From sequence record NZ_CP035506.1: a stretch of 64,000 nucleotides of DNA; one strand, 5' to 3'. The position numbers and the translations under genes are program-made. The DNA comes from a plasmid. Positions 22,168 to 56,369 of the stretch are shown here, piece by piece (positions within the stretch are counted from its first letter, which is position 1; each line of letters begins with the position of its first letter). The notes under the pieces were generated by a model, which saw only the letters and a program-made list of their open reading frames with translations, had not been told where the DNA came from and ran no database searches.

Positions 22168-22171
22168 GCAG

Positions 22172-25452: not shown

Positions 25453-25474
25453 CTTGCTGAAGGCAAACTGAACA

Positions 25475-25496
25475 ACCCGGCTCCGGCCGGGTTTTC
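25475..25496 (+). terminator. Rho-independent terminator after the exosortase gene.
   Basis: Stem CCCGGC, loop TCCG, stem GCCGGG, followed by TTTT. Confidence 0.5.
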
Positions 25497-25784: not shown

Positions 25785-26000
25785 TCATAGCCAGAACATG
25801 ACGGTTGCTGCGAGAGCGATGGCGGAAAGGAAGACCTTGGGGCACCTGTCGTAGCGGGTTGCGACGCGGCGCCAGTCCTTCAATCGCCCGAACATGATCT
25901 CAATCCTGTTGCGGCGTCTGTAGCGGCGCTTGTCATACTTGATGGGTATGCCGCGCGATTTCCGGCCGGGGATGCAGGGTTTTATCCCCTTGTCCTTCAA
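25785..26000 (-). pseudogene. C-terminal fragment of the IS5-family transposase orfB, displaced by the Tn3 insertion.
   Basis: The 71-aa sequence is identical to the C-terminus of the intact transposase at 55106-55738. Confidence 0.8.
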
Positions 26001-26081
26001 CGCTTCTCTGAACCAGTCGGCATCATAGCCGCGGTCCGCCAGCAGCCAGGGGGCTGATGCCGGAGGGGGCAGGATCCTACG

Positions 26082-28967
26082 TTAAGCCCTTTTCGGCCAC
26101 TTGTATTCGCCAGTGAGCAGGACATGGGCCCAACCGAGGGGCGAGATGTGCGCCAGAAGGTTCGGCGAACAGTCCAGGCCTTCGCGGCGGCGGCTGGCGA
26201 CGGCCTGGCCGAGATGCTTGGTGTTCCAGTAGATGACGATCGCGGCAAGAAGGTTCAGCCCGGCCATGCGGAAGTGCTGGGCTTCGGAGGTGCGGTCCCT
26301 GATCTCGCCCTGGCGGCCGATGCGGAGAGCGTTCTTCAGCGCGTGGTGGGCTTCGCCCTTGTTCAGGCCGATCTGGGCGCGGCGCTGCATGCCGGCATCA
26401 AGCAGCCAGTCGATGATGAAGAGCGTCCGTTCGACCCGTCCGATTTCCCGCAAGGCGACCGCCAGTTCATGTTGCCTCGGGTAGGACGCGAACTTCCGCA
26501 GGAGTTGGCTCGGCGGGATGGCTCCTGACGCCATGGTCGCCACGCTGCGCAGGATATCGGGCCAGTTCGCGGCGATGAGGGACTGCCTGATCTTGCCGCC
26601 GATCAGCCCTTTCAGCTCTTTCGGGCAGGCGGCCGGATCGAAGAGGTAGAGGCGCTTGGATGGCAGGTCGCGGATGCGGGGGATGAACTGGAAGCCCAGC
26701 AGGGCGGTGACGGCGAAGACGTGGTCGGTGAAGCCGCCAGTATCGGCATATTGCTCCCGGATCTTCTGCCCGGCGCTGGTCATCAGCAGGCCATCGAGGA
26801 TGTAGGGCGCTTCGTTCACGGTAGCCGGGATGGTCTGTGTGGCGAAGGGACCGAACTGGTCGGAGACATGGGTGTAGGCTTTCAGCCCGGGCTCATGGCC
26901 GTACTTGGCGTTGATCAGATTCATCGCCTCGCCCTGGCGTGTCGTCGGGAAGAACTGCCCGTCGCTCGATGCGGTCTGTCCGGCGCCCCAGAACTGCGCC
27001 ATCGGCAGTGCCGACTGCCCGTCGATCACCATGGCCAGGGCGCGGGCCATCGCCTCGCTTTCGACATGCCAGCGCGACAGGCGGGAAAGCTGGAAGAAGT
27101 CGTGCGTGTTCGTGGCCCCGGCCATCTTGCTGAGGCCGAGATTCAGCCCCTCGGCAAGCAACACGTTCAGCAGGCCGATCCGGTCCCTGCACGGCGCGCC
27201 GGTGCGCAGATGCGTAAAGGCCTCGGTGAAGCCAACCTCCGCATCCACTTCGAGCAGGAGATCGGTGACCCTGACTTCCGGCAGGCGGCCATAGAGGTCG
27301 AGCACCAAGGCGTCGGCTTCCTCGGGAACCGCCGCAGCCAGCCGGTCGATTTTCAAGGTGCCGTCCTCGATGGAGCCTCCCGGCATGGTCCCGGCCCTAG
27401 CCGCACGCGCCAGGCGATGCAGGGCGTCAGCCATTCGGGCTTTGCGGTCGGCCAGCCAGGTTTCCGGCTCGAACGGCATGGCCAGCCTCGGCGTGGCGCG
27501 GGCGACGTCGACCGGGACCAGCGCTTCCTTCAGGTCGCCATACCTGCGCGAATGCGCCAGCCAGATATCACCGGAACGGAAGGCTTCGCGCAGATGGAAC
27601 AGGACCGCGACCTCCCATATCCGGTGCTCATCTTCGCCATCCAGGTGGCGGTGCCACTTCGAGGCGCGGCGCAGAAAGGTCAGCGGCCGGACGTCTGGTG
27701 TCGCCGTGCCCGCGATGACCGCGCTTGCCGCCAGCAGCGGCTCCGCCACGGGCGCGGCACAGATGTCGAGTACCCGCAGCATGCGCGGCGCATAACGCCG
27801 GAAGCGATGATATCCGTGACCGACATGCGCCAGCGGATCAGCGGCAAACGTGTCGGTCAGTTGAGCGGCCGTGGCGACAAGCCCCTTGAGGGATATCCAG
27901 CCGCCGGCATTGCCGACGGCCTCTTCGAGAGAGGCCCGATCCTCATGCGCTTCCAGGAGCGCCGCTCCCAATGTCCTGAAGGATTGCAGGGTGTCCTTCA
28001 GCGCCGATCTGGCATCGTCCATCCGGGCGTCACATCGTGACTTCGCCTCGCGCCAGGTCTTGCCCACGATGCGGTCATGGGTCTCGACGACAGCGTCAGC
28101 AATGGCGCAGCGCCATTCCAGCGCGCAGACCGCAAGGATGGCGAGGCGGCGGTCACCCGAGATATCCCTCAGATCGCCTGCGAAGTATCGCTCTCCCTGC
28201 CGACGAAGGCGGGCAACGCGGTGTGGCGGCACATCCGCCAGAATGCCCCGGTCCAGCGCCAGCGCGCGCAGGTATTCCAGCCGGTCCAGAAGGCGGTTCA
28301 TGTCGGCCGAATTCTGCCCGGTTTCGAACTGGCGCAGCCAGACGAACCGCGTGACCGAGCCGCCCGCATCTTCGGTCAGGAGGGCATCGAGACGTGCTCG
28401 CATGGCATCGTCCAGCCGGCCACCGATCCGGGCGTCGATCCGGCGCTCGGCCGCGACAAGCGCCTCCGCGCAAAGCCGCTCGATGACCGTGATCCCCGGG
28501 AAGATGGTCTGGGTTGCCCGGCACTGCTCGACGAAGCGCCGTGCCAGATCCTCGTTCGACCGGGCGGCTTCGGCGGCATCCTCAAGCCATATTTTCAGGT
28601 CACGTGCCCCACGGCCCGCGAACATCTTGTAGCCATAGATCTCGCGCAAGGCGGCCAGGTGCTCATGCCGGGTCTCTTCCCGGGTCGCATACCCGGCCAG
28701 ATCGTCAGGCCTCATCCCGAGCTGCGCTGCCAGAAAGCGCGTGACCGCCAGCGGAATGACCTCGCCCGGCGCCAGCAGCCGCCCCGGATACCGAAGCGCG
28801 CAGAGCTGCAGGGCGAAACCGAAGCGGTTGTGCGGACGACGACGGGCGCGGACGATCTCCAGATCGTCGTCTGCCAGCGTGTAGTGGCGCAGCATCGACG
28901 CGTCATCGGTCGGCAGGTCGAACAATGCCGCCCTTTGCCGGGCGGTCAGGATGCTGCGTCTTGGCAT
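26082..28967 (-). CDS. tnpA: Tn3-family transposase TnpA (961 aa).
   Basis: Its size and N-terminus (MPRRSILTARQRAALFDLPTDDASMLRHYTLADDDLEIV...) are typical of Tn3 TnpA. The gene sits inside the GGGG-type IRs. Confidence 0.9.
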   Translation of the reverse strand: MPRRSILTARQRAALFDLPTDDASMLRHYTLADDDLEIVRARRRPHNRFGFALQLCALRYPGRLLAPGEVIPLAVTRFLAAQLGMRPDDLAGYATREETRHEHLAALREIYGYKMFAGRGARDLKIWLEDAAEAARSNEDLARRFVEQCRATQTIFPGITVIERLCAEALVAAERRIDARIGGRLDDAMRARLDALLTEDAGGSVTRFVWLRQFETGQNSADMNRLLDRLEYLRALALDRGILADVPPHRVARLRRQGERYFAGDLRDISGDRRLAILAVCALEWRCAIADAVVETHDRIVGKTWREAKSRCDARMDDARSALKDTLQSFRTLGAALLEAHEDRASLEEAVGNAGGWISLKGLVATAAQLTDTFAADPLAHVGHGYHRFRRYAPRMLRVLDICAAPVAEPLLAASAVIAGTATPDVRPLTFLRRASKWHRHLDGEDEHRIWEVAVLFHLREAFRSGDIWLAHSRRYGDLKEALVPVDVARATPRLAMPFEPETWLADRKARMADALHRLARAARAGTMPGGSIEDGTLKIDRLAAAVPEEADALVLDLYGRLPEVRVTDLLLEVDAEVGFTEAFTHLRTGAPCRDRIGLLNVLLAEGLNLGLSKMAGATNTHDFFQLSRLSRWHVESEAMARALAMVIDGQSALPMAQFWGAGQTASSDGQFFPTTRQGEAMNLINAKYGHEPGLKAYTHVSDQFGPFATQTIPATVNEAPYILDGLLMTSAGQKIREQYADTGGFTDHVFAVTALLGFQFIPRIRDLPSKRLYLFDPAACPKELKGLIGGKIRQSLIAANWPDILRSVATMASGAIPPSQLLRKFASYPRQHELAVALREIGRVERTLFIIDWLLDAGMQRRAQIGLNKGEAHHALKNALRIGRQGEIRDRTSEAQHFRMAGLNLLAAIVIYWNTKHLGQAVASRRREGLDCSPNLLAHISPLGWAHVLLTGEYKWPKRA

Positions 28968-29132
28968 GGCGATCTTTCAGGAAATCGTGATGGACGACCG
29001 TCCGTAAGGGGATCGGTGAGCGGACATGTGTCGAGAGGGTTGGGAGCGGTAAGGAAACCGCACTCCATCCTATCTCGTATAGATGGTACGATTTGATTCG
29101 CACATGCCGCCCCTTATCCGTACACTCGCTAC
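28968..29132. promoter_or_regulatory. Putative res site and divergent promoters between tnpA and tnpR.
   Basis: The position between the divergent tnpA and tnpR genes is the standard Tn3 organisation. Individual subsites were not resolved. Confidence 0.35.
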
Positions 29133-29720
29133 ATGACCGTGACCAAAATTGGCTATGCCCGCTGCTCCACCGACCGTCAGGACCTGACAGCGCAACGTGC
29201 TGCCCTTGCAGAGCTTGGGGTCACCGTAGACCGCATCTACACGGACCATGGCCTGACCGGCACGAACCGCGCCCGCCCCGGTCTCGACCAAGCGCTTGCT
29301 GCTGTGCGAGAAGGCGACGTGCTGGTCGTGCCGAAACTCGATCGCCTTGCGCGCTCGGTCCCGGACGCACGGGCCATCGCGGATCAGTTGGAAAAGAAGG
29401 GCGTCAAGCTTGCCCTCGGCGCATCGGTCTACGATCCGACCGACCCGATGGGAAAGATGTTCTTCAACATCCTCGCCACCTTCGCCGAGTTCGAGGCCGA
29501 CCTCATCCGCATGCGTACCCGCGAAGGTATGGCCATCGCCCGAGCCAGGGGCAAGCTTCGGGGAAAGCAGCCGAAACTCTCGGAAAAACAACAAAAAGAA
29601 CTGAGCCGGATGCACGCCTCCGGCGAATATTCCATCAGCGATCTCGCTGAGCTCTTTGCCGTCTCAAGACCGACCGTCTACAGGACGCTGCAGCGAAATC
29701 CGGCCAAAACTCAGCCTTAG
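29133..29720 (+). CDS. tnpR: Serine recombinase/resolvase TnpR.
   Basis: The N-terminal catalytic motif is GYARCSTDRQD (with the catalytic Ser). A C-terminal HTH is also present. Confidence 0.9.
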   Translation: MTVTKIGYARCSTDRQDLTAQRAALAELGVTVDRIYTDHGLTGTNRARPGLDQALAAVREGDVLVVPKLDRLARSVPDARAIADQLEKKGVKLALGASVYDPTDPMGKMFFNILATFAEFEADLIRMRTREGMAIARARGKLRGKQPKLSEKQQKELSRMHASGEYSISDLAELFAVSRPTVYRTLQRNPAKTQP

Positions 29721-29752
29721 CGTAGGATTCTGCCCCCTCCGGCATCAGACCC

Positions 29753-30264
29753 CAGCCAGTCCGCCTTTGGCAAGCTGCCCAGAAGTGCTGCGGCACCCGT
29801 GTAGTCACTGACCTGACCTGCGGTCACGAAGAAGCGGATTGGCCGGCCATCAGCATCGGTGACGGCGTGCAACTTGGTGTTCATGCCGCCCTTGGTTCGG
29901 CCGATCAATCGGCCCCTCTGATCGTTGGCTCCCCCTTTTTCGCTCGCAGGCTGGTCGCCGTGCGATGCGCCTTGAGATAGGTCGCGTCGATCATCACCGT
30001 CTCCGGAACTGCCGACTCTGCCGCCAGGCCGAGCATCATCCGGGCGAAGACACCCCTGTCGCTCCACCGCTTCCAACGGTTGTAGAGCGTCTTCGACGGG
30101 CCATACTCCTTGGGAGCGTCGCGCCATCGCAAACCATTGCGATTAATGAAGATAATGCCGCTGAGAACGCGCCGGTCATCAACACGCGGCTTGCCATGGC
30201 TCTTGGGAAAGAAGGGCTCCAGGCGCGACATCTGCGCCTCCGTCAGCCAAAAGAGGTTGCTCAT
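29753..30264 (-). pseudogene. IS5-family transposase: orfA is intact, and the N-terminal part of orfB is truncated at the Tn3 junction.
   Basis: orfA (29905-30264) is identical to the orfA of copy 2. orfB matches copy 2 up to ...LPKADWL and then reads into the Tn3 IR. Confidence 0.8.
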
Positions 30265-30474
30265 TCATCGGTCTCCTTGCGGAGCCTGAATCATGCTGAA
30301 AGCGCAAGATCAATGGGTCCTGACCCTAAGCGCAAGCAGCTGAGTTTTATTAATAAACTAGGAAATATTAAAAAAACCACTGTCACGCCGCATCGCAACA
30401 TGTTAATAATTGACATAAGCGTGATGAACTCGGCTCCGGCCCCTGAGCCGATTGGCAGAATTATGGAGAGAAAC

Positions 30475-31026
30475 ATGTTGAAGAAGGTTGTTACGGCTGC
30501 CCTCATCGCCGCGGCCTCCGCTGCCTCGGCAAATGCTGCTGTCATTTATGCAAGCAGCGTGGTTTCGGCTAAACAGAAGGGCTATGTTGCGCCGGTGCGC
30601 AGCAACCCGATCGCAGCAACGGGTGCCGAGGATGGGAGCTTCTACTCCCTCGGCTTCGGTGGCAGCATCGTGCTCGGCTTCTCGAGCCTGGTGAGCGGCG
30701 CTGGGAAGGTGTTCGAAGTCACCAACCTCCCGCGGGAAACCTATATCGAGAGCGCGATCTTCTCGGTCAGCCTCGACGGAAAATCCTGGACCACTCTGGG
30801 AGAATACTCCAACCAGGTCAGCTCGCTCTATTCGGCGACGCCGTTCCTCTTCCTCAAGGTGGAGGATACCAGCCCGGTGATCGCCGGCCATGGCCGTGAC
30901 GGCTATGACATCGACGCCATCGGCTTCGAAGAATATGTCGCCGCGGTTCCGCTTCCGGCGGCGGGCCTGCTGCTGATCGGTGGTCTGGCCGGCCTGGGTG
31001 CCATGAAGCGCCGCAAAGCGGCCTGA
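30475..31026 (+). CDS. VPLPA-CTERM sorting-domain protein, the predicted exosortase substrate. It is a small secreted protein with an unknown N-terminal domain.
   Basis: Signal peptide MLKKVVTAALIAAASAASANA. The C-terminus is ...EEYVAAVPLPAAGLLLIGGLAGLGAMKRRKAA: a VPLPA motif, a hydrophobic helix and a basic cluster. RBS GGAGAG is 5 nt upstream. An alternative ATG is at 30463. Confidence 0.75.
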   Translation: MLKKVVTAALIAAASAASANAAVIYASSVVSAKQKGYVAPVRSNPIAATGAEDGSFYSLGFGGSIVLGFSSLVSGAGKVFEVTNLPRETYIESAIFSVSLDGKSWTTLGEYSNQVSSLYSATPFLFLKVEDTSPVIAGHGRDGYDIDAIGFEEYVAAVPLPAAGLLLIGGLAGLGAMKRRKAA

Positions 31027-31057
31027 GCCTCAAGAAACGATTTTCGGAACGCCGGTG

Positions 31058-31090
31058 CGATTGCGCCGGCGTTTTGCTTTCCGGGTTGCT
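31058..31090 (+). terminator. Probable terminator after the VPLPA-CTERM gene.
   Basis: Stem GCCGG, 9-nt loop, stem CCGGC, then gttttgcttt. Confidence 0.4.
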
Positions 31091-31216
31091 TCCAAGGTTT
31101 CCCTTGCATCCTGGGCGTTGCTGGATCACCTCTCAGGCATCATGCGGCCCGACAAACCCCTTCCCGCCCGTCAGCGTCCCCGCTTCCCGCGGCGGGAGGG
31201 CATTCTGACAGACCGA

Positions 31217-31828
31217 ATGCGCGCCATGCCGGTGGTGCTCGTGCTGTTCGTGGCCTGCCTGATCCCGGAACTCATTCTTTCCGGAGCTGATTACGGGCTT
31301 TGGGGCGATCCCGGCTGGCGGCTCTGGGCCTGGCAGCATGGCGGCTTCTGGACGGGGCTTCTGGGCAACTGGCGGCCCAACTATGCCGCGCAACCCTGGC
31401 TCATGTTCCTGACCTACGGCTTCCTGCACGGGGGGGTGATCCATTTCGGGGTGAACATGCTCACCCTGTTCTCTCTTGCGCCACCGCTGGTGGAGCGGAT
31501 GGGACAGGGACGGTTCCTGCTGCTCTACATGGCATCCATGATCGGTGGCGGTCTGGGCTTTGCGCTGCTGTCCCAGTCTCCGCAGCCGATGGTGGGGGCG
31601 TCGGGGGCGCTGTTCGGGCTGGCGGGCGCGGTCATGGCGCTGAGCTGGCAATATCTGCGGGCACGGGGGGAGAGCCTCAGGCCGGTGATCCGGTCCCTTC
31701 TGTGGCTTGCCGGGCTGAACCTGGTCCTCTGGTGGGCGATGAGCGGGATGTTGGCCTGGGAAACCCATCTGGGTGGTTTCGTCGTCGGCTGGCTCATGGG
31801 CCTGTGGCTGGTGAGGGATGGGCGATAG
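31217..31828 (+). CDS. Rhomboid-family intramembrane serine protease.
   Basis: About 6 TM helices. The GxSG motif is MVGASGALFGLAG, and the conserved His is in a later TM (AWETHLGGFVVGW). The first ATG in frame with the track ORF 31055 is used as start. Confidence 0.7.
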   Translation: MRAMPVVLVLFVACLIPELILSGADYGLWGDPGWRLWAWQHGGFWTGLLGNWRPNYAAQPWLMFLTYGFLHGGVIHFGVNMLTLFSLAPPLVERMGQGRFLLLYMASMIGGGLGFALLSQSPQPMVGASGALFGLAGAVMALSWQYLRARGESLRPVIRSLLWLAGLNLVLWWAMSGMLAWETHLGGFVVGWLMGLWLVRDGR

Positions 31829-31900
31829 CTGCATTGCAGCGACTTGTCATGCTCCGGCTCTGCTGGCAGGCTGCCATGACGACTTCGGAGAGATATCTTT

Positions 31901-32930
31901 GACGAAACATGTATTGGTCACTGGCGGAGCAGGGTATATCGGCTCCCATGCCTGCAAGGCATTACAGCGCGCCGGCTATGTGCCCGTCACCTACGATAGC
32001 CTGATTACCGGCTGGCAGCAGGCGGTGCGCTTTGGCCCGTTCGAGCAGGGCGACCTCGCCGACAGGGCGCGGCTGGATGAGGTCTTTGCCAGGTGGAGGC
32101 CGGTCGCGGTGATGCATTTCGCTGCCCTCTCCCAGGTGGGAGAGGCGATGCGGGAGCCGGGGAAATACTGGCGCGGCAATGTCGCTGCCTCCCTCACCCT
32201 GCTGGAGGCGGCAGTGGCGGCGGGCTGCCTCGACGTGGTGTTCTCCTCCACCTGCGCGACCTATGGCGATCAGGACGGCGTGGTACTGACGGAGGAGACC
32301 CCGCAGGCGCCGATCAACGCCTATGGCGCCTCCAAGCGCGCGATCGAGGACATGTTGCGCGACTTCGGCGCGGCCTACGGACTGCGCTCAGTGATCTTCC
32401 GCTACTTCAACGTGGCGGGAGCCGATCCGGAGGCGGAGGTGGGCGAGTTCCACGACCCCGAGACGCATCTGATCCCGCTGATCCTTGAGGCGATCTCCGG
32501 CAGGCGCCCGGCGCTCACCGTCTTCGGCACCGATTACCCGACGCGGGACGGCACCTGCATCCGCGACTATGTGCATGTCTCGGACCTGGTGGATGCCCAT
32601 GTGCTCGGCGTGAAGGCGCTGGAAGCGGGACGGGTGGCGGATGGCGGGGTGGAGGTCTTCTGCCTCGGCTCCGGCAGCGGTTTCTCCGTCCGCGAGGTGA
32701 TAGAGGAGGCCCGCCGCATCACCAATCGCGAGGTGCCGGTGGTCTTGGGGGAGCGGCGCGCGGGCGATGCCGTGGCGCTGGTCTGCGGCAGCGAGAAGGC
32801 GGGGCGCGAACTGGGCTGGACCCCGGCCCGCTCCGACCTCGGCACCATGATCGAGGATGCCTGGCGGTCCTATCGCACCGTGGGCTGGGACAGGACGGTG
32901 GCGGGTGGCCCGGCGCTGGAGAATGCCTGA
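31901..32930 (+). CDS. galE: UDP-glucose 4-epimerase.
   Basis: Start codon TTG at 31901, with GGAGAG 8 nt upstream. The N-terminus is KHVLVTGGAGYIGSH (Rossmann fold) and YGASK forms the catalytic YxxxK. About 340 aa. Confidence 0.85.
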
Positions 32931-33216
32931 GCCGGGCGCGTGATGCTGCTGCGCCCCTCCGGCACGACCCTGCCCGGAGACGGCGAAAGAGCGACGGGCC
33001 CCGCCACGGGGCATGGCCCCTCCCGTCCGGTCGGTGCACCCGGTTCCATGCCGCCAAGCAGCCTCTCCTGCCAGCAGAGCTCCGCCGAAGTGCGGGCAGG
33101 GGATGTCACAATCGCGATTGGCTGTGCCGGCGCGGGTTTTCTTGGCGGGATGACGTGTATATTCACCTCCCGAGGGGCGGGACACCCGCGGGATTCGGAA
33201 CAATAAAAGGAACGAC

Positions 33217-34293
33217 ATGCGCCAGCATGCCATCTTCTTCTGCCTCCCGCTGATCCTGACTGCCTGCACGGATGGTTTCGTCTATTTCCCCGTCGATGAA
33301 AGCGGCCAGGAGCGTGCGGCGCAGGAGGAGAATGTCGATATCATCCGTCTGACCCCGGATAATATCGCAAGCTTCGCTCAGCCCACCAAGGGCCATGTCG
33401 CCACCAGCATGCCGCGGGGCGGGCGCTGGAACTATCTTGTCGGGCCGGGCGACATTCTTGACATCATCGTCTTTGATCATCCGGAGCTGACGCTCCCTGC
33501 CGGGCCGCAGCGGGCGGCGGAGGATTCCGGTTTTCGCGTGCAGGCGGACGGCAGTTTCTTCTACCCCTTCATCGGCCAGGTCCGGGCCGAGGGCCGCCCG
33601 CTCGAGCAGATCCGCGAGGAGGTGACGCGGCGGCTGGCCGAATACGTCCCGGAGCCGCAGCTCGAGGTGCGTGTCGCCGCCTTCAACTCCCAGAGCGTCG
33701 TCGTCTCGGGCGAGGTGAAGATGCCGCAGCGGCTGGAGATGACGACCAGTCCCCGCACGCTGCTGGAAGCGATCAGCGAGGCGGGCGGTTTCACCGAGAA
33801 TGCCGACATGCGCCGTGTCCGCGTCCAGCGTGGCAGCCAGTTCTATGACGTGGATGTGGAGGGCTATCTCTCCGCCGGAATGGCCGCCAACAACCCGATG
33901 CTCCGGTCGGGGGATGTGGTCTCCGTGCTGCGCAAACGCGCGCAGGAGGCCTATCTGATGGGCGAGATATCGGAGGCGGGGCCGGTCGACCTGTCGCTCG
34001 ACACCGTCTCTCTCACCCAGGCGCTGGCGCTGCAGAAGGGTGTGCGCTCCACCCGGTCCGATGCGCGCGGCGTCTTTGTCTTCCGCAACGTGCGGGGGCG
34101 CATGACCGTCTTCCAACTCGAGACGAGTTCCCCCACCGGGCTGCTGCTCGGCACGCGCTTCGTGCTGGAGCCGGGCGATGTCGTCTATGTCACGCGCAAC
34201 CCGCTGCAACGCTGGAACGACACGATCTCCAAACTGCTGCCGACGGTGCAGGCGACGAATGTGGTCGCGGCGACCGACAATGCGCTGAACTGA
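33217..34293 (+). CDS. wza: Wza-family polysaccharide export outer-membrane lipoprotein.
   Basis: Lipobox LILTAC|TDG. The Poly_export domain (GPGDILDIIVFDHPEL) is followed by SLBB repeats. Confidence 0.8.
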   Translation: MRQHAIFFCLPLILTACTDGFVYFPVDESGQERAAQEENVDIIRLTPDNIASFAQPTKGHVATSMPRGGRWNYLVGPGDILDIIVFDHPELTLPAGPQRAAEDSGFRVQADGSFFYPFIGQVRAEGRPLEQIREEVTRRLAEYVPEPQLEVRVAAFNSQSVVVSGEVKMPQRLEMTTSPRTLLEAISEAGGFTENADMRRVRVQRGSQFYDVDVEGYLSAGMAANNPMLRSGDVVSVLRKRAQEAYLMGEISEAGPVDLSLDTVSLTQALALQKGVRSTRSDARGVFVFRNVRGRMTVFQLETSSPTGLLLGTRFVLEPGDVVYVTRNPLQRWNDTISKLLPTVQATNVVAATDNALN

Positions 34294-34307
34294 TCCTGGA
34301 AGAGCCC

Positions 34308-34784
34308 ATGATTTCGAATGTGATGGTCGTCTGCGTCGGCAATATCTGCCGTTCCCCGCTGGGAGAGCGCGTGCTGCAGGCGGGTCTGCCGGGGGTCAGA
34401 GTGACTTCGGCGGGGATCGGGGCGCTGGTCGGCCATGCCGCGGATCCGCTGGCCGCGGAGGTGGCAGCGGAGCATGGCATCTCGCTCGAAGGCCATGTGG
34501 CGCGGCAGTTCACCGCCGAACTGGGCGGCACGCAGGATCTGATCCTGGTCATGGAGCCGGGGCACAAGGCGGAAATCACCCGCCTGGCCCCCGCGCTGTC
34601 GGGCCGCGTGATGCTGTTCGATCAATGGACCGGCGCCAAGGGGATCGCCGACCCTTATCAGCGGTCGCGGGAATTCCACGAGGCCGTGCATGGGGAAATC
34701 GCGACGGCGGCGCAGGGCTGGATCGCCCGGCTCGGCCCCCGGCCTAGTTCCCGCCCAGGTTCAGGTTCCGGAGCCGGGGCATGA
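34308..34784 (+). CDS. wzb: Low-molecular-weight protein-tyrosine phosphatase.
   Basis: P-loop CVGNICRSP (C-X5-R), plus a downstream DP motif. Confidence 0.85.
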   Translation: MISNVMVVCVGNICRSPLGERVLQAGLPGVRVTSAGIGALVGHAADPLAAEVAAEHGISLEGHVARQFTAELGGTQDLILVMEPGHKAEITRLAPALSGRVMLFDQWTGAKGIADPYQRSREFHEAVHGEIATAAQGWIARLGPRPSSRPGSGSGAGA

Positions 34785-36957
34785 GCCCGAAGCCCCCGCG
34801 CGAGGCGGAAGCGAAGGAAGTCGATCTCGCCGCGCTGGCCGAGGAGCTCTGGGCCGCCAAGGGCAAGGTCGCTGGATTTACCGCGGCCGGGCTGCTCGCG
34901 GGGGTTCTCTACATCTTCCTCACCGCCCCCACCTATGAGGCGGATGCGCTGATCCAGCTGGAACCGAAGACCGGCAACCTCGCCGTGCCCTCGGGGCTTT
35001 CCGATCTGATGGGCGGTGGTCAGACCCAGGCCACGACCGAACGGGAACTGATTATGTCGCGCCTGGTGCTGAACCAGGCGGTGGCGGATGTGCATCTGGA
35101 ATGGACAGCCCGGCCCCGGCAGTTCCCGGTGATCGGCTATGCGCTGCGGTCCCGCGCGCTGCCCTTCAAGGGAATGAGCTTTCTGCGGCCCTATGCCCAG
35201 GGGGGGAGCGGATCCGCCTCGATCTGCTTGCCGTGCCGCCGCACTGGACGGGAGAAACCTTCACCCTCACCAAGGGCGACGGGGATACCTTCCGCGTGAC
35301 CACCCCCGACGGCCGCCTGTTCGAGGGCCGCGTGGGGGAAGTCCTGCAGGATACCGATATCGGCTTCGCCCTCCGTGTGGGGGAATTGGAAGGCCAGCCG
35401 GGACGGCAGTTCGAGATCGCCCACCGCGAGACGCAGGATGTCATCGAAGGGCTTCGCCGGTCCCTGTCGGTTGCCGAAAAGACCCGCGATTCCGGCATCC
35501 TGGAGTTGTCCTTCACCTCCCGCGACCGGGTGGAGGCGCAGCGCACGCTGGCCGCCATCGCGCAGGCCTATGTCCGCCAGAACGTGGAGCGCTCTGCCGC
35601 GCAGGCAGAAAACAGCCTTGGCTTCATCCAGCAGCAGATCCCCAAGGCCCGGCAGGACATGCTGGATGCACAGGACCGGCTGAACACCTATCGCGAGTCG
35701 CAGCGTTCCGTCGATATCCAGTTCGAGACACAGAACCTGCTGACCCAGATCGGCACGCTGGAGACCGAACTTCGTGAACTCCGCTCGCAGGAGGACGAGG
35801 TCGCCGATCTCTATACCAAGAACCACCCGCGCTACCGCCAGCTTCTGGCGCAGCGGGAGCGGCTGGAGGATCAGCTCAACAAGCTGCGGGGGAGATCGGC
35901 ACCCTGCCCGACACGCAGCGGGAGATCCTGAACTACACCCATGACGTGGAAATGGCGCAGGAGATCTATACCGAGCTTCTGACCCGCGCGCAGGAAGTGG
36001 ATGTCATGCGCGCCTCCACCGTCGGCAATGTGCGGATCGTCGATCCGGCAGAGACCCAGATCCGTCCCGTGGCGCCCCGCAAGGCGCGCGTTCTCGCTCT
36101 TGCCCTGTTGCTGGGCGGTATGCTGGGGGCGGGCTATGTGCTGCTGCGGAACTGGCTGCGGAAGGGTATCCAGAGCGCTTCCGACCTGGAGGACATGGGT
36201 CTCACGGTCTTTGCCACCATCAACAAGAGCCCGGATGCCGAAAGGCCGGAAGGCGGGCGCGGCGGGCGCGTTCCGCTGCTGGCGGCAACTAAGCCCACCG
36301 ACCTTGCCGTGGAGGGGCTGCGTTCGCTCCGCACGGGGCTGCATTTCGGGATGCTGGACGCCCCCTCCCGCACGCTGGCCATCACTTCCACCGCGCCGGG
36401 TGCGGGCAAGAGCTTCCTGTCGGCCAACTTCGCCGTCGTCTCCGCCCAGGCGGGACAGTCGGTCTGCCTGATCGACGCGGACATGCGGCGCGGGCGCCTG
36501 CGGCGGATGTTCGACGTGCCCCGCGATGCACCGGGCTTTGCCGATATCCTGACCGGACAGGCGCGGCTTGAGGATGTGCTGGTGCCAACCGGGGTGCAGG
36601 GGCTGGTTTTCCTGCCTGCAGGCAAGTTCCCCCCGAACCCGGCGGAATTGCTGCTCCGCCCGACGCTCCCGGCGCTCATCCGCGAGCTGGACCAGCGGTT
36701 CGATCTGTCGATCTTCGACTGCCCCCGGTTCTGGCGGTCACCGATCCGGTCATCATCGCCAAGGCAGCGGGGGCGAGCCTGCTCGTCGCCCGCTTCGACG
36801 AGACGCCGGAGGGCGAGATCCGTGCGGCTCAGGCCGCGATGGAGGCGGCAGGCACCGGCTTCAAGGGCGCGGTTTTCAATGCCTATGACCACCGCAAGGC
36901 CAAATCGGCGCAGAGCTATTCCTATCGCTATGAATACAAGGCGAAGGAGGAGTAACC
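34781..36957 (+). pseudogene. wzc: Wzc-type chain-length determinant/tyrosine autokinase, broken by three frameshifts. Each one is at a G- or C-homopolymer run.
   Basis: Three overlapping track ORFs (34781-35299, 35101-35931, 35946-37091) together reconstruct an N-terminal Wzz domain, a coiled-coil, a Walker A (TAPGAGKSF) and a terminal Tyr cluster SYSYRYEY, ending at the TAA at 36955-36957. The frame changes fall at GGGGGGG (about 35200), GGGGG (about 35890) and CCCCC (about 36725). Confidence 0.75.
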
Positions 36958-37383
36958 TCCCTTTCGCCCGGAAAATGAAAGGCAAAAGATCGCCGATGGC
37001 GGCACAGGAGCAACATGGTCTGATGTGCCTGGGCCGCAAAACGATAAACATGGGTCGGCGACCGTTGCCGTTTGCCAATCATGAGCGATAATGATGGGCG
37101 TAGTTCGTGAGCCGTGCAGGACAATCGAATGAGACTTTACACCGGCAGGGCCTCCATGAATGCCTCCGGGTAGACGGTCCGGAGGGATGAGCCGGCGCCG
37201 GATGAAAAGGGCGGTCGTTCCTCCCCTTCCTTCAGGGCACCTGTCAGACTTGGGACAGCCCTGGAGGCAGTCCTCCACGATCCAGCCTCCTCGGAGGCCT
37301 TCTTTCCGGGCTGTCGCGGCCCGGTGCAGCGGGCAGTATTTCCAATGTGGCGGGATATCACCCGCCCACCTCAAGGTTCCGGC

Positions 37384-38508
37384 ATGATCTTCGTCAACGC
37401 ATTCGCCTTCGCGATCCTGGCAAGTTGCCTGTTCGCCACCGTTCTCGTCCTGACGCGCCATTTGCATGGGCATCTGACCCTCGACAGTCAGGTGGGCGTG
37501 CAGAAGCTCCATGCCGTGCCGACCCCGCGGGTTGGCGGGCTTGCCCTCATGGTCGGTGCGCTGGCGGGTGGTTTCGCCCTGCCGGATGGCGGGCGGGAGC
37601 TGTGGTGGATGATCTGTCTTGCTGCGATCCCCGCCTTCGCCTCCGGGCTGATCGAGGACGTGACCAAGCGGGTGGGCGTGCGCACCCGCCTGCTGGCCAC
37701 CATCCTGTCGGGGCTGATCTTCTGCCTGCTCTCGGGCTACGCCATCCGGGGGGTGGACCTGCCGGGGGTGGACATGCTGCTGGCCATCGGCCCGATTGCC
37801 GTGCTCTTCACCGCCTTCGCCATTGGCGGCATCGCCAATGCGCTGAACATCATCGACGGGGTGAACGGGCTGGCTTCGGGGACGGCGATCATCATCCTCG
37901 CCGGCTTCGGGCTCATCGCCTGGCAGACGGGGGATACGGCGATCATGGGTGTCTGCCTTGTCGCCATCGGGGCCATCGCCGGGTTCTTCCTGCTGAACTA
38001 TCCGCTCGGGCTGATCTTCTTCGGCGATGCCGGCGCCTATGGGACGGGCTATCTGCTGGCGGTTCTCGCCGTCGCGCTCCCTGCCCGCAACCCGGAGATC
38101 TCGCCGATCATCGGCATCCTGCTCCTGGCCTATCCGATGATCGAGACCTTCGTGTCGATCCACCGCCGCACCGTGCGGACCGGCAGCCATCCCGGCCAGC
38201 CCGACCGGTTGCATCTGCACAGCCTCGTCTATCGCAGCCTCGCCCGCCGTATCGCACGGGGGCTGGGCAGGCCCCAGCTGCGCAACCCCGTGGCCAGCAC
38301 GATCCTCTGGGCCTTCCCGCTGCTGTCCACCGTATTGGCGGTGTTCTGTGCCAAAAGCTCGCTCGCCATCTGGGGGGCGCTGCTCGTGGTGGCCTGCTGC
38401 TACCTGCTGCTCTACCGCCGCGTGGCGCTGCTGCGCGGCCGGGGCGGGAATGGCCCTTCCGGGCGGAACATCCGTCCGCATCATCCTGCGGCCCATCCGG
38501 CCGAATAG
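37384..38508 (+). CDS. Glycosyltransferase family 4 (MraY/WecA-like) polyprenyl-phosphate HexNAc-1-phosphate transferase. This is the priming enzyme of cluster B.
   Basis: A polytopic protein with the conserved NALNIIDGVNGL and FFGDAGAYG motifs of the MraY/WecA superfamily. The start is uncertain; the track ORF begins at 37324. Confidence 0.7.
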   Translation: MIFVNAFAFAILASCLFATVLVLTRHLHGHLTLDSQVGVQKLHAVPTPRVGGLALMVGALAGGFALPDGGRELWWMICLAAIPAFASGLIEDVTKRVGVRTRLLATILSGLIFCLLSGYAIRGVDLPGVDMLLAIGPIAVLFTAFAIGGIANALNIIDGVNGLASGTAIIILAGFGLIAWQTGDTAIMGVCLVAIGAIAGFFLLNYPLGLIFFGDAGAYGTGYLLAVLAVALPARNPEISPIIGILLLAYPMIETFVSIHRRTVRTGSHPGQPDRLHLHSLVYRSLARRIARGLGRPQLRNPVASTILWAFPLLSTVLAVFCAKSSLAIWGALLVVACCYLLLYRRVALLRGRGGNGPSGRNIRPHHPAAHPAE

Positions 38509-38526
38509 GCCGCAAGGAGCGGCGTA

Positions 38527-39690
38527 TCATCCCCTGAGCGGGATGCGTGCTCCGGCCGGGACAGCGCCACCCTTTTCCGCGACGACCCGGCGGACGATCT
38601 CCAGATAGCTTTTCGCGCGTTCGGTGGGGCTCATGCCTGCAAAACCCTGCGCGCGGATCATCTCCCGCTCCTCATCCGACGGGGGGGTGGCCAGTCCTTC
38701 GGCGATACAGGCGGCCGCTGCCTCGGGTGCATGGGGGTCGAAATAGCGCGCGAAGGGTCCGCAGATGTCCCTTACGAAGGGCCGGTCGGAAGCGAACACC
38801 CGCAGCCCCATCGCCATCGCCTCCAGCGGCATGACGGAGAAGCATTCAAGCAGGCTCGGGAAGATCGCGGCGTCCAGCCCCGCGTAGAAGGAGGGGCACT
38901 GGGCGAGGTCGAGCGGCCCGACATTGGTGACCGCGCTTCGGAACTCCGGGCTGCGTGCCTGCCATTCTGCTTCCGTCAAGGTGACGAGGAACTCCACCGC
39001 AATCCCATGCCGTTCACGGAGCGCGCGCGCCACCTCCGGCAGGATGGACAGGTTCTTGTGCGGGTAATCCCGGCCAAGAAAGCCGATGCGCAGCCCCTTC
39101 CGCTCCGGCAGCGCCACCGGCCGCCACAGCTCCGGCTGACGGAAGATGTCGCTCACGCAGTTCGAGACCACGCTCACCTGTCCTTCGCGGAACAGCCCGC
39201 GGGCGACGAGCCGCTCCTTCACATGCCCGGCCTCCACGATGGCATGGTCGGCATTCCGCCGCAGGATCGCCGCCTGCAGGCCGTATTTCAGCCGCGATTT
39301 CGCTTTGGCGAGCGGGGAAAGGCCTTTGTAGATGTCATTGTCGGGATAGATGATCCACGGCTGGGCAAAGCCCATCACGCTCACTTTCGGGCGGCGGCGG
39401 GCATAGAGCGGGCCGAATATGGTAAAGACCGCATCAGCCCGCGCGATCTCCTCATCCAGCACGGGGTCGAAGGGCGAGAGACCGGGAACAGAGCGCACCC
39501 GGTAGCGCGCAAAGGCGCCCGTGTCGCAGCCGATCTGGGCAAGGTTGCGGTCCACCCCCTCGCAGGCGAGCACGCTGATCTCCATTCCCTCCGGGCCGAG
39601 GCGCGCGATTTCGTCGATGGCGGAGATGCCGACCTGCACCACCCCGCCGACACGGAGGTTGGAGGCATTGATCAGAAGGCGAAAGGTCAT
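38527..39690 (-). CDS. GT-B glycosyltransferase (GT4 family).
   Basis: 387 aa, opening MTFRLLINASNLRVGGVVQVG..., with a C-terminal E-x7-E-like region (PLEAMAMGLRVFAS). Confidence 0.65.
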   Translation of the reverse strand: MTFRLLINASNLRVGGVVQVGISAIDEIARLGPEGMEISVLACEGVDRNLAQIGCDTGAFARYRVRSVPGLSPFDPVLDEEIARADAVFTIFGPLYARRRPKVSVMGFAQPWIIYPDNDIYKGLSPLAKAKSRLKYGLQAAILRRNADHAIVEAGHVKERLVARGLFREGQVSVVSNCVSDIFRQPELWRPVALPERKGLRIGFLGRDYPHKNLSILPEVARALRERHGIAVEFLVTLTEAEWQARSPEFRSAVTNVGPLDLAQCPSFYAGLDAAIFPSLLECFSVMPLEAMAMGLRVFASDRPFVRDICGPFARYFDPHAPEAAAACIAEGLATPPSDEEREMIRAQGFAGMSPTERAKSYLEIVRRVVAEKGGAVPAGARIPLRG

Positions 39691-39708
39691 GGGATATCCG
39701 GGCTGGGA

Positions 39709-40713
39709 TCAGGGGATGTAATAGCCATCGCCCCAGGCATAGATGTTCTCGACGAAGGGGATGGTCTTCAGGCTGAAATAGACCAGAAGCGCCAGCATCA
39801 GCGGATGACTGGCCCGCCGCTCCGTCACGGCAAGGTAGAGCAGGAATGTGACTGCCATGACGTTGATGCGGGAGGCCCCGAAGACCGCCGCCGCCATCGC
39901 GATCGGAATGAGGCCCACCAGGAATGCCTGCTTCCGGCGGAGCACGACCACTCCCACGATGATGAGCAGCCCCATGCTGGCCAGTTCGGCCACCCCGCCC
40001 CCCTGATACGCGGCCATCTTGCCCTGAATGGCGGGCAGGAAGCGCAGCACAAAGAGCAGAAATCCGATGATGGCGACCGGAATCCCCATGAGGATGAGAA
40101 GCAGCTGTAACGGGGTGACGTAGCGGCGCAGGAAATCGGCAGACCCCACACGCAGACCCGCCCCCGCCGCGATCAGCAGGAAGGACTGGAAATGCGCCGT
40201 CATGGATATGAACAGGATCAGCGCCCTTTTCCATCCCGACACCAGCATGGCGAGCGTCAGCAGGATATAGGCGAGCTTCAGGCGTTCGAGCGACGTGAAC
40301 AGCGTGATGAGGTAGAAGTTCGTAAAGATGAGAGCGGTCGGCAGCACACCAGCCCGATAGCGACGCAGGAACAGGAAAAGGACCAGCGCCAGTATTCCGT
40401 TCATCACGGAAATCACGACATCCTTGTCCAGCCCCGCGCTGGAGGTGACCCACATCAGATAGCCATAGAGCGGTTCGGCCGAGCCGGTGGTCATCGCCTG
40501 AACGATCGGCACGGCATCGGCCCGCACACCCCGTACCTCGTCATAGAAGGCGCGGTAGTTGAGCTGGTCTCCCCCTGTATAGGCTCCCAGCAGCGAGAGG
40601 GAGATGCCGAAGGCCACCAGGAAGACGAGCATCCCCGCCAGCAGATCGGCCCCCCTGAGGCCTGCCCGGAAAGGCTGTGCGACCGGACTGGCGTCAATGG
40701 CGCGGCTCGTCAT
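39709..40713 (-). CDS. EpsG-family polytopic membrane protein (putative repeat-unit polymerase, Wzy-like).
   Basis: 334 aa with about 9-10 TM helices. Its composition and length are typical of EpsG/Wzy proteins. Confidence 0.5.
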   Translation of the reverse strand: MTSRAIDASPVAQPFRAGLRGADLLAGMLVFLVAFGISLSLLGAYTGGDQLNYRAFYDEVRGVRADAVPIVQAMTTGSAEPLYGYLMWVTSSAGLDKDVVISVMNGILALVLFLFLRRYRAGVLPTALIFTNFYLITLFTSLERLKLAYILLTLAMLVSGWKRALILFISMTAHFQSFLLIAAGAGLRVGSADFLRRYVTPLQLLLILMGIPVAIIGFLLFVLRFLPAIQGKMAAYQGGGVAELASMGLLIIVGVVVLRRKQAFLVGLIPIAMAAAVFGASRINVMAVTFLLYLAVTERRASHPLMLALLVYFSLKTIPFVENIYAWGDGYYIP

Positions 40714-40947
40714 CGCTTTCCCATGCTTGGCCTCCGGGGCGGGGTGCCGCCGGTGGCGGTACTATATGCAGCCCCGCTGCCGAGGTCGAGCCGACAGGGC
40801 GTCACGACCGGATGAGGACCTGCGCGCCGGAGCGGGCGGTCACGGTGCATCTGCGCCTGACGATTTTGAGGCACCGGAGCGGCGCGCCCCCGAAGCAGGA
40901 GGAAGGAGGCCGATGCGACTGGCCGTGTGCATCCCTGCTTCAGGAAA

Positions 40948-41040
40948 TGCCGGGCTCAAAATACCAGACTCAAAATACCGGGCTCCCACGAATACTGGGC
41001 TCCCACGAAATACCGGCCTCCGCGAAATACCGGGCTCACA
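40948..41040. repeat. Tandem array of about five imperfect 17-19-bp direct repeats (consensus gggctcccacgaaatacc).
   Basis: The run reads tgccgggctcaaaatacc / agactcaaaatacc / gggctcccacgaatact / gggctcccacgaaatacc / ggcctccgcgaaatacc / gggctcac. It lies inside a 900-bp divergent intergenic region. Confidence 0.6.
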
Positions 41041-41089
41041 GGCGGGCCGTGGCCATGCGGGCCTCCGGGATATTCTGTCGGGGGAGACC

Positions 41090-41400
41090 GGGGGGAGAGA
41101 TCCGTGAGGGGAGATCGGGGAGAGAGGCCATCGGTTTCGCCCTCCCGGTCGGGTCGGTATGGGGATCCGGGAGGGAGAGGCAAGGAAGGCCCGTGGTCAG
41201 GCCCCTGCCTGCCCCTGCCCGGGTACCCCCTGCCTGCTGCTTCTCCCTACCCCCCGTTTCGCTTCCTGCCCAGCCTGCCCCCGCCCACTCTCCACCTGCC
41301 CACTCTCCTCCCTCCGGCCTCCTCCCGCCCGGCCTCCTCCTGCACCGCCTCGTCCTCCCCGGTGCAATCGACACCAGGCCACCCGCCATGGCAAAGCCGG
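41090..41400. repeat. Strand-asymmetric purine tract (GGGGAGAGA-like, 41090-41160) followed by a long polypyrimidine (C/T-rich) tract (41200-41400).
   Basis: Visible in the sequence. The track ORF 40677-41561 translates this tract as a Pro-rich pseudo-protein. Confidence 0.4.
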
Positions 41401-41620
41401 TCACCGGTATCGTGAGGGCGCCGCACTCCATCCCCTTCCGTGACATGAGGCCATTGGCGATTGAGGGTCGGGAGCCGGTCGAGGCGAAGCGGCCCCTGCC
41501 GCCTGCTTCCGCGCCAGGCGCAGCAATCCGCCTGCCCGCCCCTTCCCTTCCCTTTCCATGACGGCCCGCCCGTGCTAGGCGGCAGAACCAACCGAAGGCC
41601 CAGGATACCCGAGCCACCGC

Positions 41621-42370
41621 ATGAAGATTTCCGCCGTCATGGCCTGCTACAATTCCGGGGCGACGGTCGCGCGGGCGGTTGAGAGTTTTCTCCTTCAGGA
41701 CCATGCGGAGCGGGAGCTTGTCGTGGTGGACGGTGCGTCGAAGGACGAGACCTGTACCGTGGTGGAGGGGTTCGCCAGCCCGCTCATCAGTCTCGCCTCC
41801 GGGCCGGACCGCGGCATCTACGACGCGATCAACAAGGGTATCGCCCGGGCGGAGGGAGAGGTGATCGGCATCCTGCACTCCAATGACCGTTACGCCCATC
41901 CGCATGTCCTCTCCCGCGTGGCGGAAGCCTTTGCGGGGGGTGATCTCGATGCGGTCTTTGCCGATGTGACCTTTCATCCGCCCGGCCAGCCGGACCGGGT
42001 GATCCGGCGCTATGACAGTTCCCACTTCCGGCCCGAGCGGATCGCGGCGGGGGCGATGCCCGCCCATACCGCGCTGTTCCTTCATCGCCGTGTGTTCGAG
42101 GCACATGGTCTTTACCGGACAGATTACCGCATCGCCGGGGATTTCGAATTCGTGGCCCGCGTGTTCCGGAAGGGCGACATCCGCTGGCGGCATGTCCCGG
42201 AGGTCTGGGTCAGGATGGAGGCGGGCGGCGCCAGCACCTCGGGGCTGAGGAGCAAGATCCTCGGCACGCAGGAAGTGCGCCGCGCCTGCCGGGAGAACGG
42301 CATTGCCACCAGCTATCCGCGCATCCTGTCGAAATATCCCCGCAAGCTTCTGGAACTGGTCCGGCACTGA
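41621..42370 (+). CDS. Glycosyltransferase family 2.
   Basis: MKISAVMACYNSGATVARAVES...VVVDGASKD...DAD-like motifs. Confidence 0.75.
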   Translation: MKISAVMACYNSGATVARAVESFLLQDHAERELVVVDGASKDETCTVVEGFASPLISLASGPDRGIYDAINKGIARAEGEVIGILHSNDRYAHPHVLSRVAEAFAGGDLDAVFADVTFHPPGQPDRVIRRYDSSHFRPERIAAGAMPAHTALFLHRRVFEAHGLYRTDYRIAGDFEFVARVFRKGDIRWRHVPEVWVRMEAGGASTSGLRSKILGTQEVRRACRENGIATSYPRILSKYPRKLLELVRH

Positions 42371-42607
42371 CATGACCTGTCTCCCGGACAATTGCCCTTG
42401 CGGCATTCGCCATTCCCGTAGAGCCGGCCTGCCCGGCCGCGCTTCTGCAGCCCGCCCTGCCCGCCCGCAGGAGGCGCGGCTCTTCGTCCGTCGGCGTCCC
42501 GCGGGTATTTCCGCTCTTGTCCGCGCCCGGCGGATTTTCACGATAACCGCCTGCAGTCCGCGGGCGCCTTCCAGCCATCCCCGCCCGCTTTCAGCCAGGA
42601 GACCCCG

Positions 42608-43726
42608 ATGAAAAAGGCCCTTATCACAGGTATCACCGGCCAGGACGGCTCCTATCTGGCGGAATTCCTGCTCGCCAAGGGCTATGAAGTCCATGGGATC
42701 AAGCGCCGCGCCTCGCTGTTCAACACCCAGCGGATCGACCACATCTATGAGGACCCGCACAACCCGGACCCGCGGCTGAAGCTGCATTACGGCGACCTCA
42801 CCGACACGTCGAACCTGACGCGCATCCTGCGCGAGGTGGAGCCTGACGAGGTCTACAACCTCGGCGCGCAATCCCATGTCGCGGTGAGCTTCGAGGCGCC
42901 GGAATACACCGCCGATGTGGATGCGATCGGCACGCTGCGGCTTCTGGAGGCGATCCGCTTCCTCGGGCTGGAGCAGAAGACCCGCTTCTACCAGGCCTCC
43001 ACCTCCGAACTCTACGGGCTGGTGCAGGAGATCCCGCAGAAGGAGACGACCCCCTTCCATCCGCGCAGCCCTTACGCGGTGGCCAAGATGTATGCCTACT
43101 GGATCGCGGTGAACTACCGCGAGGCCTATGGGATTTATGCCTGCAACGGCATCCTCTTCAATCATGAGAGCCCCCGCCGCGGCGAGACCTTCGTGACGCG
43201 CAAGATCACCCGGGGCCTGGCCAACATCGCGCAGGGGCTGGAGCAGTGCCTCTACATGGGCAATATCGACAGCCTGCGCGACTGGGGCCATGCCAAGGAC
43301 TATGTCCGCATGCAGTGGATGATGCTCCAGCAGGAGGCGGCGGAGGATTTCGTCATCGCCACCGGCAAGCAGTATTCGGTGCGCGAATTCATCCGCTGGT
43401 CGGCGGCAGAGCTGGGGCTGACGCTGGAGTTCACCGGGACCGGCGTGGAGGAGGTGGCGACCGTCACCGCCATCACGGGGGACAAGGCGCCCGACGTGAA
43501 GGCGGGCCAGGTCATCATGCGCATCGACCCGCGCTATTTCCGCCCGGCCGAGGTGGAGACGCTGCTCGGCGATCCGACCAAGGCCAAGGAGAAGCTCGGC
43601 TGGGTGCCGGAGATCACCGCGCAGGAGATGTGCGCCGAGATGGTGGCCGAGGATCTGCAATCCGCCCGCCGTCACCGGCTGCTGCGGGAGCATGGCTTCC
43701 ACGCGCCGGTCTCGGTCGAAGCGTAA
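42608..43726 (+). CDS. gmd: GDP-mannose 4,6-dehydratase.
   Basis: The highly conserved N-terminus [34 protein letters not shown]..., and the overall sequence is diagnostic of Gmd. Confidence 0.95.
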
Positions 43727-43737
43727 GGGGCGGGACA

Positions 43738-56365: not shown

Positions 56366-56369
56366 GACA

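Follow-up and report, generated by a model that had tools for sequence, protein, structure and literature searches.

Three frameshifts at G/C runs in a plasmid-borne wzc of Haematobacter massiliensis OT1 are probably errors in the consensus of a PacBio-only assembly

The stretch of DNA analysed here, referred to as the window (64,000 nucleotides), is part of plasmid pOT1-6 (CP035506) of Haematobacter massiliensis strain OT1, a plasmid of 118,868 bp (PMC6498234). Its central feature is a wza-wzb-wzc module within an exopolysaccharide (EPS) cluster that is flanked by insertion sequences (30.3-54.9 kb) and is the second EPS cluster of the window; the positions of all features are compiled in Table 1. 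The first two genes of the module are intact, as had been stated in an earlier note on this DNA that was made from the sequence alone, with Wza recurring unchanged on other contigs and Wzb being recognised by Pfam. The best NCBIfam match of Wza is PRK15078, a polysaccharide export protein, at 290 bits and under the curated cut-off of 333, and gene calls on the reference contigs give the same 158-aa wzb. The third gene, wzc, starts with an ATG that overlaps the stop codon of wzb, and as recorded it cannot be read in one frame.

Table 1. Features of the window, in window coordinates
Feature	Position	Strand	Description
wza	33217-34293	+	Outer-membrane polysaccharide export protein, 358 aa, intact; exact protein on 21 other contigs
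wzb	34308-34784	+	Low-molecular-weight phosphotyrosine phosphatase, 158 aa, intact; Pfam LMWPc, E = 5e-34
wzc	34781-36955 (including stop)	+	PCP-2a / BY-kinase; as recorded, split into four in-frame pieces
wzc pieces	34781-35206, 35207-35892, 35893-36726, 36727-36955	+	Three-frame translation
Lesion 1	35200-35206	+	wzc; G7 in the window, whereas all other assemblies have G8 (or A+G7); codons Q-G-G-E
Lesion 2	35888-35892	+	wzc; G5 in the window, G6 elsewhere; codons R-G-E; periplasmic coiled-coil region
Lesion 3	36722-36726	+	wzc; C5 in the window, C6 elsewhere; codons C-P-P of Walker B FDCPPV
Lesion 4	50624-50628	-	779-aa gene; plus strand C5 in the window, C6 in 10/10 references; coding strand CGG GGG GAG
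779-aa gene ('beta-helix' gene of the earlier note)	49294-51632	-	Split in the window; intact 779 aa in 10 reference contigs
PCP, 503 aa	15131-16642	-	Intact; exosortase/PEP-CTERM EPS locus
BY-kinase, about 284 aa	14242-15099	-	Intact; partner of the 503-aa PCP
IS5-family element, 858 bp	54904-55761		Right boundary of the second EPS cluster; Pfam DDE_Tnp_1
Inverted IS copy, 100% identical	25762-26049 and 29753-30329		Split by the Tn3-family transposon
Tn3-family transposon	26049-29753		Inside the inverted IS copy; 961-aa transposase, 195-aa resolvase

The reading frame of wzc, given as window position modulo 3, passes from 2 to 1 to 0 and back to 2 across three sites, each of which amounts to a deficit of one base. 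These changes had been placed at about 35200, 35890 and 36725 by the earlier note, and lesions 1 to 3 of Table 1 bear this out; of the span given there for the gene, 34781-36957, the start holds while the end lies at 36955, the stop codon included. The net change of -3 returns the C-terminal piece to the starting frame, the two middle pieces reach stops, and the original frame itself stops at 35297, so that there is no read-through. Addition of one base at each site yields a single open reading frame of 725 aa.

All domains of the protein can be recovered in this way, as the earlier note had maintained. The restored Wzc matches the Pfam families Wzz, WZC_N, GNVR and AAA_31, the first three above their cut-offs, and contains a Walker A motif (GAGKS), a Walker A' motif (VCLIDADMRRG), a Walker B motif (LSIFDCPPV) and the C-terminal tyrosine cluster SYSYRYEY. 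Two hydrophobic segments, GFTAAGLLAGVLYIFLTAP and ARVLALALLLGGMLGAGYVLL, can be read from the sequence and agree with the two transmembrane segments of a PCP protein. Residues 11-724 align with the cryo-EM structures 7NHR and 7NI2 of E. coli Wzc at an E value of about 1e-139, and the structures 3LA6 and 3CIO of the kinase domain could be aligned as well. The restored protein is thereby predicted to join an N-terminal Wzz/PCP part to a cytoplasmic BY-kinase domain. A scan of a genome collection revealed that H. massiliensis CCUG 47968 and Haematobacter genomosp. 1 H2240 encode a protein 100% identical to it in one uninterrupted frame.

The restored protein shares with Wzc of E. coli K30 and K-12 the Wzz, WZC_N and GNVR domains, the Walker A, A' and B motifs and the tyrosine cluster at the C-terminus, and the gene order wza-wzb-wzc is that of the group 1 capsule or colanic-acid-type export module. 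With 146.8 bits it scores above the cut-off of 108 of TIGR01007 and is, therefore, a member of this family. However, it does not qualify as an equivalog of E. coli Wzc, since its top NCBIfam match, the Wzc equivalog PRK11519, was reached with 570 bits only against a cut-off of 1068. In contrast to E. coli wzc, the gene resides on a plasmid, in a genome of the Paracoccaceae.

A lesion of the same type occurs in the 779-aa gene of the same cluster, where a run of six C on the plus strand is shortened to five. The earlier note had already pointed to this similarity; its end coordinate for the gene, 51692, has to be moved to 51632, and the one Pfam match that could back its designation as a beta-helix gene is sub-threshold (Pect-lyase_RHGA_epim, E = 0.003), no Pfam family being found at threshold. 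The other PCP/BY-kinase pair of the window (14242-16642), which had been described as intact, showed no gap in comparison with a short-read contig (L080). In NCBIfam its best scores were obtained with the XrtA-system chain length determinant and with the XrtA-associated tyrosine autokinase, in each case under the cut-off, and EpsH/EpsI are encoded in its neighbourhood. With respect to the mobile elements, the IS5-family element at the right boundary of the second EPS cluster is absent from CCUG 47968, and the OT1 plasmids pOT1-7, -8 and -9 carry copies of the Tn3-family transposon with 100% identity.

The OT1 genome was obtained from one PacBio RSII SMRT cell, assembled by means of HGAP 2.3 and Quiver (stated coverage, 233x), and is based on long reads only, without short-read polishing (PMC6498234). 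Among the proteins of the window, exact GenBank matches include QBJ22828.1 and QBJ22831.1. For comparison, contigs bearing exact copies of window proteins were taken from draft genomes at NCBI and from metagenome assemblies of JGI, ENA and Logan. The short-read contigs derive from at least six independent samples, several of them representing essentially the same plasmid, and cover positions 1-23344, 30211-55006 and 55732-64000 of the window (56.4 kb), the uncovered rest consisting of IS and Tn3 sequence, at which every short-read contig breaks off. For every covered segment some reference is identical to the window save for four single-base gaps, with no substitution in the 56.4 kb. All four gaps are bases absent from the window, located in G/C runs with a reference length of at least six, and no insertions were found. 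Around wzc, the alignment of the JGI contig L063 with window positions 30211-44290 spans 14,083 positions, of which 14,080 match; the wzc gaps account for the other three, and no substitution relative to this contig was found in these 14 kb. A search of PLSDB with the wzc region gave no match, and when JGI metagenome contigs were searched with the restored Wzc, only H. missouriensis-like sequences and distant relatives came up, i.e. no further contigs of the H. massiliensis type.

In all 12 other assemblies that carry this wzc, which are of the H. massiliensis type, the tracts are in frame, as is the tract of the 779-aa gene in 10 of 10. At site 1 the lineages have either G8 or A+G7, both of which keep the frame. 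A polymorphism in tract length between assemblies was not seen among the 12 available for wzc and the 10 for the 779-aa gene, and none of the compared assemblies shares a lesion allele with OT1. Similarly, the 172-aa product of the first wzc fragment has no record elsewhere, which is a weak negative and concerns the G7 allele only. In H. missouriensis (L003) the corresponding runs are interrupted, reading CAGGGCGGTGAA, CGGGGCGAG and TGTCCCCCG, indicating that the runs in wzc are incidental runs of glycine and proline codons.

The same type of lesion was sought elsewhere in the OT1 assembly with a de novo detector, which looks for G/C runs where the gain or loss of a single base would join two open stretches that have a high GC content at the third codon position. 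On the window the detector recovered exactly the four lesions with no false positives. It was also applied to a further 400 kb of the OT1 assembly, comprising 200 kb of plasmid pOT1-1 and 100 kb each of plasmids pOT1-7 and pOT1-4. Comparison with the annotation led us to discard most candidates found there as natural gene junctions, antisense frames or programmed frameshifts of IS5 elements. One clear lesion was left, a run of five C at about position 160805 of pOT1-1, located in an annotation gap with a missing locus tag. One additional base at this site restores a 259-aa ABC ATPase of sugar transport, the break lying within the LSGGE signature, and five short-read contigs have C6 at this position, so that OT1 shows the same deficit from six to five. 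Thus, this type of lesion is specific neither to EPS genes nor to pOT1-6. Four of these five lesions reside in runs of at least six G followed by AG, a context in which 4 of 21 tracts are affected compared to 1 of 140 other tracts (Fisher p = 0.001). This preference is consistent with a context-dependent systematic bias of the base caller; we know of no earlier description of such errors favouring runs of at least six G followed by AG.

Three of the four lesions of the window fall into one gene of 2.2 kb, within 1.5 kb of each other (permutation p of about 0.013, based on 54 G/C runs of at least six bases), and within the EPS cluster the concentration of three of four in wzc has a p of about 0.05 among 29 tracts. 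All four are located inside the IS-flanked second EPS cluster, with none in the 24 long tracts elsewhere in the covered window. Per tract, the rate is 4/54 in the window versus 1 in about 149 in the 400 kb of other OT1 plasmids; for this comparison, Fisher's test gave p = 0.044 at 300 kb sampled. Part of the clustering is attributable to the higher density of long G/C runs in the window, about three times that found elsewhere (0.96 versus 0.36 per kb), and to the two tracts of at least six G followed by AG that are situated in wzc, out of nine in the window. In addition, the window was picked on account of the wzc lesions, which inflates the apparent clustering. The clustering of the lesions is, nevertheless, real and explained only in part.

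Since a single base is missing at each lesion, always from a G/C run of a PacBio-only assembly, and since the gene is intact in every short-read assembly, an artefact is the most likely explanation: the frameshifts, three in wzc and a further one in the 779-aa gene, are probably consensus errors. The record is long-read only, for each covered segment it differs from some reference in homopolymer length and in nothing else, and all of these differences are deletions. Furthermore, the first break already destroys wzc, so that biology provides no reason for three of them. Homopolymer sequencing error, which the earlier note had named as the competing explanation, is thus the one favoured by the evidence. 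The caller would have undercounted G/C homopolymers of at least six bases by one, i.e. the missing bases were probably dropped by the caller and not by the cell. Published assemblies contain residual errors of this kind. A PacBio/Quiver assembly at 262x with a QV above 50 retained 205 indels after polishing, nearly all of them in G or C homopolymers (PMC4832174), and false frameshifts at G runs were described for another high-GC PacBio/Quiver assembly (PMC4853030). The OT1 lesions resemble the known residual deletions of PacBio RSII HGAP/Quiver assemblies in being confined to a long-read-only record, in consisting of single-base deficits in G/C runs, in being in frame in short reads, and in that a second replicon shows the same type of lesion in a gene unrelated to these. 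They are unlike these artefacts in that three lesions lie in one 2.2-kb gene, at a density above that of 400 kb of sister plasmids, and in the marked preference for AG after the run. Four errors in 56 kb at the stated 233x is a high number for Quiver, and consensus error needs the extra assumption of a locally poor consensus. Such a local excess might be due, for example, to a low coverage of pOT1-6, as general experience with HGAP assemblies would suggest; alternatively, a former contig end or overlap may have been left unpolished after circularisation and rotation. On the real plasmid, wzc probably encodes an intact predicted Wzc of 725 aa that belongs to an ordinary wza-wzb-wzc module.

The clustering is what gives weight to the view that OT1 has recently switched off its second EPS pathway by genuine -1 slippage in wzc and in the 779-aa gene after its lineage had split off. 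All four lesions reside in one IS-flanked EPS cluster as opposed to a single one across the 400 kb taken from further OT1 plasmids, a distribution that is unexpected under uniformly random error (p of about 0.013); G/C runs are the sites most prone to slippage, and loss of EPS or capsule is common in culture. Recent pseudogenisation, which the earlier note had brought forward, nevertheless fits poorly and we regard it as unlikely. It would require four private frameshifts, yet each segment has a reference with zero substitutions. As an approximation, such a ratio needs a homopolymer indel rate thousands of times the substitution rate per site, well in excess of that of wild-type or mismatch-repair-deficient bacteria. 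A mismatch-repair mutator lineage is likewise disfavoured, as many transitions would be expected, and for every segment there is a reference free of them. The second and third lesions in wzc bring no benefit, so that selection cannot account for three, and the bias towards wzc among the 29 tracts of the cluster is left equally unexplained. Moreover, the unrelated sugar-transport ATPase on pOT1-1 is broken in the same manner, the alleles occur in no other assembly, and other signs of decay are missing, the restored protein being 100% identical to that of CCUG 47968. Should the lesions be real and have arisen together, a single episode of error-prone repair or replication, for instance of a Pol IV/DinB type that characteristically yields -1 changes in G runs, might have scattered -1 deletions over the IS-flanked EPS cluster; alternatively, several sub-lineages with wzc off might have been selected in parallel in the sequenced culture. 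We consider this reading quite improbable. A related scenario combines biology and caller: a mixed culture, or plasmid copies with different real slippages in wzc, read by a deletion-biased caller, could have produced a chimeric gene whose triple lesion exists on no single molecule. This would cover both the signature of homopolymer deletions and their concentration in one gene on which selection for loss of function frequently acts, and heteroplasmy is possible given that wzc is plasmid-borne. However, the scenario is built by inference throughout, it requires large minority fractions at three sites together, and it is superfluous where the 779-aa gene and the pOT1-1 ATPase are concerned; we hold it to be very unlikely.

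Slipped-strand phase variation, also proposed in the earlier note, would make the tracts contingency repeats that switch Wzc, and hence EPS, on and off. It draws on a likeness to the contingency loci of Neisseria, Haemophilus and Campylobacter, namely frameshifts at G/C runs in a gene for surface polysaccharide, and on site 1, which as an intact G8 is long enough to slip appreciably and occurs as G8 or A+G7 between lineages. In contrast to those loci, wzc displays three lesions and not one switch, its tracts are short and without polymorphism in 12 assemblies, and they are not conserved in the sister species H. missouriensis, where they are interrupted. The on state would need three independent +1 events, with no single tract in control; two of the tracts have only six bases when intact, and the residual G7, G5 and C5 are short. 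G/C runs of at least six bases occur about once per kb throughout the window, so that those in wzc are not special. The comparison of tract lengths among isolates, which the earlier note had recommended, returned the same in-frame lengths in all 12 assemblies and speaks against such switching, which is accordingly extremely improbable. Rescue of the recorded gene by programmed ribosomal frameshifting or transcriptional slippage was rejected in view of the three sites, the lack of slippery heptamers and runs of only five to seven bases. A functional split into separate PCP and kinase proteins was also rejected, as lesion 2 lies in the periplasmic domain and lesion 3 inside Walker B.

If the lesions are consensus errors, the pOT1-6 record probably misreports an intact Wzc and an intact 779-aa protein of the EPS cluster as broken, as does the pOT1-1 record for an intact sugar-transport ATPase, and it would be wrong to conclude that OT1 lacks a second EPS pathway. 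The AG that is preferred after the G runs could be of use in flagging false frameshifts of this kind in other high-GC assemblies of the Quiver era. If, on the other hand, the lesions are real, they form an unusual cluster of frameshifts of the same type without substitutions, a mutational phenomenon that would merit attention; having arisen together, they would represent a natural case of clustered, context-specific (at least six G, then AG) frameshift mutagenesis on a plasmid.

Two further frame differences in the window were evaluated as lesions and rejected. The frame change at about 55280 is due to two overlapping ORFs of the IS5 family with their usual programmed frameshift. At the C-terminus of a chloride channel, the window has G6 at 56395-56400 where CCUG 47968 has G7; this G6 is real lineage variation, as the exact 532-aa product of the window is found in four short-read assemblies. 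The protein cluster of this chloride channel includes QBJ22867.1.

Four of the five one-base lesions reside in a common sequence context, a run of at least six G residues followed by AG, when the window is considered together with six loci on other OT1 plasmids (L096-L098 and L150-L152). In this set, 4 of the 21 tracts of that type carry a lesion versus only 1 of the 140 other tracts (p = 0.001). The context encodes Gly-Glu codon pairs (GGG GAG), and it is shared by several tracts that are unaffected, such as the G8-AG at window position 9613. G/C runs of six or more bases occur at 0.96 per kb in the window (1-64000) compared to 0.36 per kb in 300 kb of the other OT1 plasmids, an approximately threefold higher density at a similar overall GC content.

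The lesion on pOT1-1 is of the same type as those in wzc. Here, OT1 has C5 where five short-read contigs have C6, and the one-base deficit breaks a 259-aa sugar ABC-transporter ATPase within its LSGGE signature. The split gene is adjoined by iol (inositol) genes, and in this region the locus tag HmaOT1_RS14580 is absent from the gene table.

The chloride channel protein ends in ...NRPPSERG* in the window (G6) and in ...NRPPL* in strain CCUG 47968 (G7), and the window version is matched exactly in four short-read assemblies; this difference is a natural, tolerated length variation at the extreme C-terminus. At the intergenic position 3569, the G4 of the window, shared by the JGI contig L080, is a G3 in the Logan contig L161, showing that short-read metagenome contigs are likewise neither error-free nor invariant at short runs. 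Other length differences were observed in repeats and in frame: the intergenic region 40900-41400 contains short C/T-rich repeats (CTCCTCCC...) with indels of 1-15 bp between strains, and an in-frame 15-bp difference at 44743 coincides with the site of length variation in the neighbouring glycosyltransferase, which has 402 aa in the window and 407 aa in other NCBI assemblies of H. massiliensis and genomosp. 1.

Positions of the features discussed (window coordinates unless another sequence is named)
Feature	Position	Strand
First EPS locus, exosortase/PEP-CTERM (XrtA-type)	~13300-25500	
IS5-family element, left copy with Tn3-family insertion	25762-30329	
779-aa protein gene	49294-51632	-
IS5-family element, 858 bp, right flank of second EPS cluster	54904-55761	
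Chloride channel gene C-terminus, G6 (strand given for the run)	56395-56400	+
One-base deficit in sugar ABC-transporter ATPase	L152 10805-10809 (NZ_CP035511.1, pOT1-1, ~160805)	

The first EPS locus is intact, with zero gaps relative to a short-read contig. It encodes EpsH/EpsI, a TPR lipoprotein, a Poly_export protein, a Bac_transf priming transferase and an AAA ATPase, with chain-length determinant and tyrosine kinase as separate genes. For the 779-aa protein of the second cluster, no family in Pfam or NCBIfam reached threshold, and its sole match was weak and pectate-lyase-like (E = 0.003). In every Haematobacter contig seen, its gene has conserved neighbours, namely a GT2 gene and a pyruvyl transferase gene; the product may act as a glycanase or in modifying the polymer.

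The second EPS cluster (~30.3-54.9 kb) is flanked by two inverted, 100% identical copies of the 858-bp IS5-family element, neither of which is present at these sites in CCUG 47968 or H2240. This layout is similar to that of a composite transposon or of an invertible segment. A Tn3-family transposon of 3.7 kb splits the left copy, and pOT1-7, -8 and -9 carry identical copies of this transposon.
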